Below, piece by piece: positions 14,248 to 15,900 of a DNA stretch of 64,000 bases. Each line of letters opens with the position of its first letter. Position 1 is the first letter of the stretch. Source of the stretch: Escherichia coli (GTDB lineage Bacteria; Pseudomonadota; Gammaproteobacteria; Enterobacterales; Enterobacteriaceae); NCBI RefSeq assembly GCF_001677475.2, contig NZ_CP015229.1; one strand, 5' to 3'. Below the pieces are notes generated by a model that was given only the letters and a program-made list of their open reading frames with translations, searched no databases and was not told where the DNA came from. Position numbers and translations under genes: made by a program.

Positions 14248-15900
14248 TTAACCCTGCAGCAGAGACAGAACCTGCTGCGGTACCTGGTTAGCTTTTGCCA
14301 GCACGGAGTTACCGGCCTGCTGGATGATCTGCGCTTTCGACATGTTGGACACTTCGGTCGCATAGTCGGCGTCCTGAATACGGGACTGCGCTTCAGACAG
14401 GTTGGTAGTGGTGTTGTTCAGGTTGGTGACGGCGGAATCCAGACGGTTTTGCACCGCACCGAGGGAAGAACGGAATTTGTCGATGGAGCTGATGGCTTCG
14501 TCCAGAGCTTTCAGGGGATCGGCTGTCGTAGCTGCTTTTGTTTCAGCATCTGTCGTCAATTTACCGTCAGCATCTTTATAAACTGCCTTACCGCTGCCGT
14601 TAGTCACTGAACCATCATCCTGTAGGTAAAAATCTACAGTATCAGATGTGGTCAACGCCCCGTTGTTATCAACATAAACCGAATTACCACCTTTTGTTAC
14701 AGCGCCAGTTGTGCCGTTTACGCTATAACCTGCGGTAGTGAAATCAACATTGTTTCCAGAGGTTGATACAGCTTTATCGAAAGCTGCCTGATCAACTTTT
14801 GCACCTGTTACTGAATAAGTAATAGTGTCCGGCGTAGTACTATTACCGGTAAAGGAGATAGAGGTACCGCCAATGTCAATGGTTGTCGCTTTGGTATCAT
14901 TGGCTGCAAGTGTGGACAGACTAGCCTCAGTCAAAGATGCACCAGAGCCGTTTTTCGTTAAGCGCCCAGTTGTATCAATGTAGAGTTTATCTCCATTGCT
15001 TGCCGTAATTTTACCATCACTGCTGATCTGAACATCCTGTGCAGAACCATCGATAGTAATAGTGCCCTTAGCGGTATCACCAACACCTGGGGTCAAATAT
15101 TTCTGAACATCGGCAGCTGAAGCCGTTGTGGTATCAAAAGAGTAAGACTTACTTGCACTATCATACTTGTAATTCGTTGCACTAGCCGCCGTTCCGAAGC
15201 CGTTATTAATGGTTGCCTGAACAGTATCACCATCACTAACTCCAGCCAGCAAATCAGACGCTTTAGCAGCATCGTAACCCGCACTCACAGTATATTTGTT
15301 GCCGACCACAGTTGCATTAGCAGCTACCAAGTCAGCTTTAGATGCAGCAGTGTTAGCGACAGAACCGCCACCATTCACATTAAACCCACTCAGCCCCAGA
15401 GTATCAGAGTCAATTTTTTTCAGATCAATAGTGATAGTCTGGCCGTCGTTCGCACCAACCTGAATTTTCATGGAACCGTCTTTTGCCAGTACGTTCACGC
15501 CGTTGAACTGGGTCTGACCGGATACGCGGTCAATTTCATCAAGACGGGATTTGATTTCGTCCTGAATGGAGTCCAGATCCGAATCAGAGTTAGTCCCGGT
15601 AGAAGCCTGAACCGTCAGCTCACGGATACGCTGTAAGTTGTTGTTGATTTCGGACAGCGCGCCTTCAGTGGTCTGTGCAACAGAAATACCGTCGTTGGCG
15701 TTACGTGCCGCCTGAGTCAGGCCTTTAATGTTAGAAGTAAAACGGTTAGCAATCGCCTGACCCGCGGCGTCATCCTTCGCGCTGTTAATACGCAAGCCAG
15801 AAGACAGACGCTCGATAGAACTCGACAGCGCAGACTGGTTCTTGTTGATATTATTTTGAGTGATCAGCGAGAGGCTGTTGGTATTAATGACTTGTGCCAT
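14248..15900 (-). CDS. fliC: flagellin FliC, 550 aa allele (non-K-12 H type)
   Basis: Conserved flagellin N-terminus ([54 protein letters not shown]) and C-terminus ([12 protein letters not shown]); long Thr/Ser/Gly/Asn-rich central region. Confidence 0.95.

Follow-up and report, generated by a model that had tools for sequence, protein, structure and literature searches.

An intact Escherichia coli fliC gene whose central domain probably belongs to the H14 family

Introduction

Which H antigen is specified by a flagellin gene whose ends are those of other E. coli flagellins and whose long central domain is not that of K-12? The question is raised by a fliC gene in the 64-kb stretch of E. coli DNA analysed here (the window). 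The initial annotation had recognised a distinct H antigen and had left the serotype unassigned; the matches of the central block now resolve it as H14 family. The probability that the feature is a fliC filament-protein gene with an H14-family central domain, present as the sub-allele WP_034173522.1, is put at roughly 90 %. The gene is intact, ordinary and already catalogued, and it is a typing marker rather than a new feature.

The fliC gene and its locus

The gene lies on the minus strand, which the initial annotation had omitted, and its frame runs from 15900 to 14248 in the list of open reading frames, encoding 550 amino acids with no internal stop. The surrounding order, tcyJ-fliZ-fliA-fliC / fliD-fliS-fliT-amyA, is that of the standard E. 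coli flagellar region III. Coordinates taken from this list use the first possible start codon, so that FliZ, for example, has 195 amino acids against the annotated 183.

14248-15900, minus strand: fliC coding sequence, 550 codons with ATG start and a TAA stop at 14248-14250 (list of open reading frames)
11724-12581, minus strand (as fliC): tcyJ/fliY
12612-13199, minus strand (as fliC): fliZ
13209-13928, minus strand (as fliC): fliA
16166-17572, plus strand, divergent from fliC: fliD, followed by fliS, fliT and amyA

Three Pfam domains are found in the protein, namely Flagellin_N (PF00669, residues 5-140, 1.4e-46), the enterobacterial FliC domain (PF12445, residues 330-454, 4.6e-28) and Flagellin_C (PF00700, residues 463-548, 4.6e-32). 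It scores 782 bits against the NCBIfam FliC/FljB model NF005953, for which the cut-off is 619, and covers profile positions 1-548 of 548. By domains, score and position, the protein is a FliC/FljB flagellin at the fliC locus. Pfam, NCBIfam and the alignment to K-12 agree with the initial description of a flagellin with conserved N- and C-terminal ends around a long non-K-12 centre, and both lengths given there hold: 550 amino acids, in the list of open reading frames as well as in the identical database protein, and 498 for the K-12 flagellin (PDB 8CXM).

The protein can be divided into the following blocks and segments.

15382-15900, minus strand: N-terminal conserved block, residues 1-173 (D0/D1 helices and beta-hairpin, including the segment 89-99), 99.4 % identical to H6
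14515-15381, minus strand: central variable block, residues 174-462, the exposed outer domains that would carry H14 specificity, found in 47 of 5,426 genomes
14251-14514, minus strand: C-terminal conserved block, residues 463-550 (D1/D0 helix), 96.6 % identical to H6
14941-14970, minus strand: residues 311-320, counterpart of the D4 dimer motif by alignment columns (motif and mutagenesis in PMC8931119)
14671-14718, minus strand: residues 395-410, with six of the 13 replacements relative to the common H14 allele (allele comparison)

The centre had been described as about 300 residues rich in Thr, Ser, Gly and Asn. Its length of 289 residues and its content of Thr (15.6 %), Gly (11.4 %) and Ser (10.4 %) fit that description, but Ala (14.2 %) and Asp (10.0 %) are more abundant than Asn, which at 6.6 % is rarer here than in the N-terminal block (10.4 %). 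Cys, Trp and His are absent from FliC. A search of 1.84 billion proteins with the central domain alone returned no more than 39 representative clusters, the best of them 48 % identical.

Assignment of the central block to the H14 family

A search of 5,426 complete E. coli genomes with the central block, repeated by sensitive blastn at word size 11, found it in only 47, at 96.6-99.8 % identity. Three pig isolates, ETEC1738 among them, and one isolate from the environment match the centre at 99.6-99.8 %, and the other 43 genomes do so at about 96.6-97.8 %. In the sensitive search of the same 5,426 genomes, other fliC types showed no match to the central block beyond its first 60-95 nucleotides, and nothing lay between 96.6 % identity and noise. 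The family defined by the central block is therefore discrete, because intermediate matches are missing even at this sensitivity.

Strains with a published or deposited serotype link this family to H14. The centre is 96.6-97.4 % identical to the fliC of strain 873.10, deposited as O18ac:H14 (NZ_CP061754.1), and of CEC15, published as O180:H14 (PMC10680302). CEC15 and strain 2012EL-2448 share one FliC protein, WP_000079702.1, which, to go by their identical scores, most of the 43 genomes would encode too. In addition, typing assigns 93 % of Shigella flexneri isolates to H14 (PMC11529414), and the S. flexneri FliC falls into the same 90 % cluster as the protein of the window, 7-8 residues apart from it. 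As the labelled O18ac:H14 and O180:H14 strains and S. flexneri share this allele cluster, the gene can be placed in the H14 family; by sequence, its centre is highly similar to fliC genes typed as H14 and, among the 5,426 genomes, to those of no other H type.

An IS3-family element interrupts the fliC of NZ_CP061754.1, which appears in the annotation as two pseudogene fragments. Strain 873.10 probably lacks motility, and its H14 label was probably derived in silico.

Searches of records and literature found no serotype label for the exact allele or its source strain, and literature searches on 2012EL-2448, 2015C-3121, ETEC1738 and the serotype O138:H14 returned nothing. We take 2012EL-2448 and 2015C-3121 to be O91:H14, and O138:H14 is presumably a classic serotype of pigs; neither assumption forms part of the evidence.

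The practical value of the gene lies in typing, since it marks its strain as H14-family. Carriers of H14 comprise STEC (several strains named as such are among the matches), commensals such as CEC15, pig isolates and, silently, S. flexneri.

Sub-alleles within the H14 family

Within the family the allele of the window is the rarer one, found in four of the 47 genomes of the complete-genome set. The common allele WP_000079702.1 (CEC15, 2012EL-2448) sits at the same locus, has the same 550 amino acids and is identical in its N- and C-terminal protein blocks, with an overall identity of 97.6 % in protein and 96.9 % in DNA. Thirteen replacements separate the two proteins (S180A, A300S, S319F, G320S, D335N, D358N, N384D, N395D, T397A, G405V, N406A, S407P and V410I), all of them within residues 180-410 of the central block and the last six within residues 395-410. 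One pair lies directly beside the D4 motif, where the window has S319/G320 and the common H14 allele F319/S320.

The closest proteins after the identical ones are those of strain 1105 (P0003), with 550 amino acids and four residues different from the window, and of S. flexneri, likewise with 550 amino acids and the 7-8 differences noted above. Further replacements occur in the S. flexneri alleles, including Q527L (P0004) within the C-terminal conserved block, whereas the allele of the window has no change in the conserved blocks. The extra changes may fit relaxed constraint in a non-motile host.

The H14 labels that were found belong to alleles 13 residues away, with all 13 in the exposed domain. 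H1 and H12 are separate H types in spite of 97.5 % DNA identity (PMC4753304), so that 96.9 % identity falls short of proving the same serological type. From its sequence, the flagellin of the window would be serologically identical with H14 and would react with H14 antiserum. The allele could instead represent a subtype that serology can tell apart, or an H type near H14 that has gone unrecognised, on the precedent of H1 and H12 and with an in-silico call that would still read H14. The clustering of all replacements in the exposed residues 180-410, six of them in 395-410, speaks for such a subtype, as does the distribution of the differing nucleotides: in the centre 14 lie in replaced codons and 16 in synonymous ones, and in the end blocks 21 are synonymous and none falls in a replaced codon. 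Against this, the sub-alleles form a graded series (four residues to strain 1105, 7-8 to S. flexneri and 13 to CEC15) rather than two separated groups, and the S. flexneri alleles, which are of the intermediate kind, are still typed as H14 (PMC11529414). A separate type is unlikely on balance, and membership of the H14 family remains the preferred assignment.

Silent differences, mosaic ends and the origin of the sequence

The exact 550-residue FliC is on record as ANO89633.1 / WP_034173522.1 on 180 contigs, and the identical translation was obtained from ten fetched genomes; a frameshift artefact, which according to the initial annotation would change the call, was checked for and none was found. 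The DNA of these ten genes differs from that of the window at 23-28 sites, all of them third-position and silent, and the reference genomes differ among themselves at 11-16 silent fliC sites. Amino-acid differences do occur in the flanking genes, and the intergenic sequence diverges by ~2 %.

The silent differences are unevenly distributed. Of the 27 that separate the window from ETEC1738, 25 lie in the conserved end blocks and two in the central 867 nt. The N-terminal 511 nt have their best DNA match in the H1 strains Nissle 1917, CFT073 and NRG 857C O83:H1 (98.8 %), and the C-terminal 273 nt in O121:H19 and O145 strains (98.9 %), with the H14 genomes closest to neither end block. This silent-site pattern shows that recombination acts on the conserved ends separately from the H14 centre. 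The arrangement is a familiar mosaic, in which the antigen-determining centre moves or persists as a unit and the ends recombine with the alleles present. The locus thereby illustrates the evolution of E. coli flagellins, with a rare centre whose protein sequence is unchanged in backgrounds ~2 % apart and with ends exchanged with other H types, and it leaves the current understanding unchanged.

Silent differences concentrated in the end blocks, with each end closest to a different H type, are also what a chimera misassembled from two fliC alleles could give, and the long reading frame as a whole might be an assembly or frameshift artefact. Yet the identical protein occurs in many independent assemblies, the references themselves differ at 11-16 silent sites, elsewhere, over 3.66 kb around fliF, the window is matched at 100 % identity by the independent draft assembly GCA_019140555.1, and mosaic ends are a known natural pattern of E. 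coli fliC. The artefact or chimera reading is largely refuted, and its probability is close to nil.

A synthetic or artificial origin was also considered, given an identical protein with 23-28 silent sites, and was rejected. The divergence is instead natural, because the flanking genes vary as well, the references vary among one another in the same way, and GCA_019140555.1 matches the window over its 3.66 kb.

Over stretches of 6-24 kb (8000-14247, 16166-22000 and 30000-54000), identity to the window does not exceed about 98.0-98.6 % in any of the 5,426 complete RefSeq E. coli genomes. These comparisons place the window in a real but thinly sampled E. coli lineage.

Regulatory elements and expression

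The signals for transcription and translation of fliC can be read from the flanking DNA.

15977-16003, minus strand: putative fliC promoter of the sigma-28 (FliA) type, TAAAGGTT-N11-GACGATAA, read from sequence and pattern, exact in 12 of 12 reference loci
15910-15913, minus strand: Shine-Dalgarno sequence AGGA, 9 nt upstream of the ATG (sequence)
16096-16122, plus strand: putative divergent sigma-28 type promoter of fliD-fliS-fliT, TAAACTTT-N11-GCCGATAA, exact in 12 of 12 reference loci
14051-14073, minus strand: predicted intrinsic terminator of fliC with a 7-bp all-G:C stem, a 3-nt loop and a T6 run (terminator scan and pattern), exact in 11 of 12 reference loci
14086-14210, no strand assigned: two REP/BIME-type palindromes in the fliC 3' UTR between stop codon and terminator (inverted repeats, many copies per genome)

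The sigma-28 consensus is TAAAGTTT-N11-GCCGATAA, from which the fliC promoter departs by one mismatch per box; its likeness to the consensus suggests that it would function as such. The fliC-fliD spacer (15901-16165, 265 nt) is identical in 11 of 12 reference loci in the midst of genes that have diverged by ~2 %, which points to an unusually strong conservation of this regulatory spacer. At the 3' end, an Rfam search of the fliC flanks found no curated RNA family, the palindromes giving only sub-threshold matches to the REP-derived naRNA4 and to ES036. In strain 1105 the 3' spacer of fliC is reduced by ~150 nt, and the terminator sequence seen here is absent from it.

According to established flagellar biology, FliA (sigma-28), encoded just downstream, would transcribe fliC late in flagellar assembly from TAAAGGTT-N11-GACGATAA. 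FliC would then be exported unfolded through the type III system of the flagellum, chaperoned by FliS from a neighbouring gene, and would polymerise under the FliD cap. The terminal D0/D1 helices would form the core of the filament and contain the TLR5 recognition site, and the 289-residue centre would form beta-rich outer domains on the filament surface, that is, the H antigen. For the FliC of the window we infer expression, motility and outer-domain packing. The window does not extend to flhDC, to the flg and mot/che genes or to any flagellin locus other than fliC.

An intact gene may nevertheless be cryptic, in a strain that is non-motile or expresses another flagellin, as would be the case for the H14-like fliC of S. 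flexneri. Nearly the same gene is present in that species, Shigella being non-motile, and the master regulator flhDC is among the many flagellar genes, most of the total, that the window does not cover. The genes fliA, fliZ, fliD, fliS, fliT and fliE-R within it, however, are all full length, with reading frames of the expected sizes; the promoter region does not differ from that of other E. coli; no second flagellin gene was found within the 64 kb; and the 23-28 differences from other carriers are all silent, which argues for continuing purifying selection. A cryptic gene is accordingly improbable, and a filament-protein gene of the H14 family remains the preferred reading.

Outer-domain structure and the question of a sheath

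The closest solved relative is the sheath-forming flagellin of EPEC O127:H6 (PDB 7SN7 / 7SQJ), whose outer domains are described as D2-D3-D4 in PMC8931119. It has 548 amino acids and aligns with the protein of the window end to end in a single stretch (E = 4e-187). The conserved blocks are nearly the same (99.4 % identity at the N-terminus and 96.6 % at the C-terminus), the centre is 44 % identical, and the outer domains are homologous. The flagellin of EHEC O157:H7 (PDB 7SN4) has the same overall domain plan and gave the best Foldseek match (E = 3.9e-49), although it is longer (585 amino acids) and only 33 % identical in the centre. In contrast, the K-12 flagellin H48 (PDB 8CXM) shares the locus, the regulation and nearly identical D0/D1 ends, and its shorter outer region gives no more than a weak, partial alignment (162 bits for the second stretch, residues 282-550).

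An AlphaFold2 model computed from an alignment of 25 sequences reached a mean pLDDT of 80, with values mostly of 85-92 in the outer domains. It predicts long terminal helices (5-100, 106-129 and 462-539) around a beta-rich centre. The five best Foldseek matches of the model are four filaments, those of H7 (two chains), Azotobacter, H6 and Achromobacter, with E-values of 1e-35 to 1e-49, and Salmonella FliC ranks lower at about 1e-29. The ranking rests on these E-values instead of the global TM-scores, which are low for the solved filaments (0.38-0.56), as one would expect where flexible flagellins of several domains adopt up and down conformers. Both the sequence and the predicted fold group H14 FliC with the sheath-forming H6 and H7 flagellins.

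Flagellins with an outer-domain sheath are reported from EHEC H7, EPEC H6, E. coli Nissle H1 and Achromobacter, and the sheath is described as consisting of dimers of the domains D2 and D4, with two conserved Asn in the motif at the D4 interface, N319 and N323 in H7 (PMC8931119). Mutation of both residues to Phe or Arg, including N319R N323R, drastically reduced motility (PMC8931119). Sheath-type architecture was taken here to mean a homologous multi-domain outer region ~50-100 residues longer than in K-12 or Salmonella, and the protein of the window shows it, with 550 against 498 amino acids, single-stretch alignments to H6 and H7 and these two among the best Foldseek matches. The two-Asn motif is another matter: the window reads GRLTKNG where H6 has GNLTKNN, and in every H14 allele examined R313 replaces the first Asn, N319 in H7, with N317 kept. 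Other members of the family vary at the first position too (S, E, T and L), which makes the meaning of R313 uncertain.

H14 flagellin accordingly has the sheath-type architecture by sequence and predicted fold but lacks one defining sequence feature, and its filaments may or may not form such a sheath. Conversely, that R313 leaves H14 filaments without an outer-domain sheath or makes them pack it differently, and that sub-allelic variation at the interface alters lattice, swimming and antigenicity, is doubtful. If it were true, the allelic variation beside the D4 motif (S319/G320 versus F319/S320) could change the surface lattice, swimming and antigenicity of the filament.

Other observations in the window and the reference genomes

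An insert of ~5 kb (25003-30103) lies between a DUF5503/LRR gene (23513-24631) and fliE. In five related genomes the insert is absent and the DUF5503 gene adjoins fliE. The following features were recognised in it.

25051-25863: IS3-family transposase, inside the insert
26428-27018: truncated SRAP (yedK-like) N-terminus fused to a fragment of a Dam methylase, inside the insert
27015-27833: weak HEPN-like open reading frame, inside the insert
28932-30233: phage-type integrase of the insert

By its content the insert looks like a decayed integrative element or a prophage remnant. SRAP-family (yedK-like) sequences thus occur twice in the window, once at full length (22113-22781) and once in the truncated form listed above, which retains ~120 residues of the domain.

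Among the flagellar genes, FliZ has 4-5 replacements in its 183 residues relative to the reference loci, with 5-7 changes at first codon positions, a higher rate than that of the neighbouring fliA (one residue) and fliC (none). In the NCTC assembly GCA_900450425.1 (UGFC01000006.1), amyA, fliZ, tcyJ, dcyD and sdiA are fragmented, with 25 gap openings relative to the window, which suggests assembly indel errors and not real pseudogenes.
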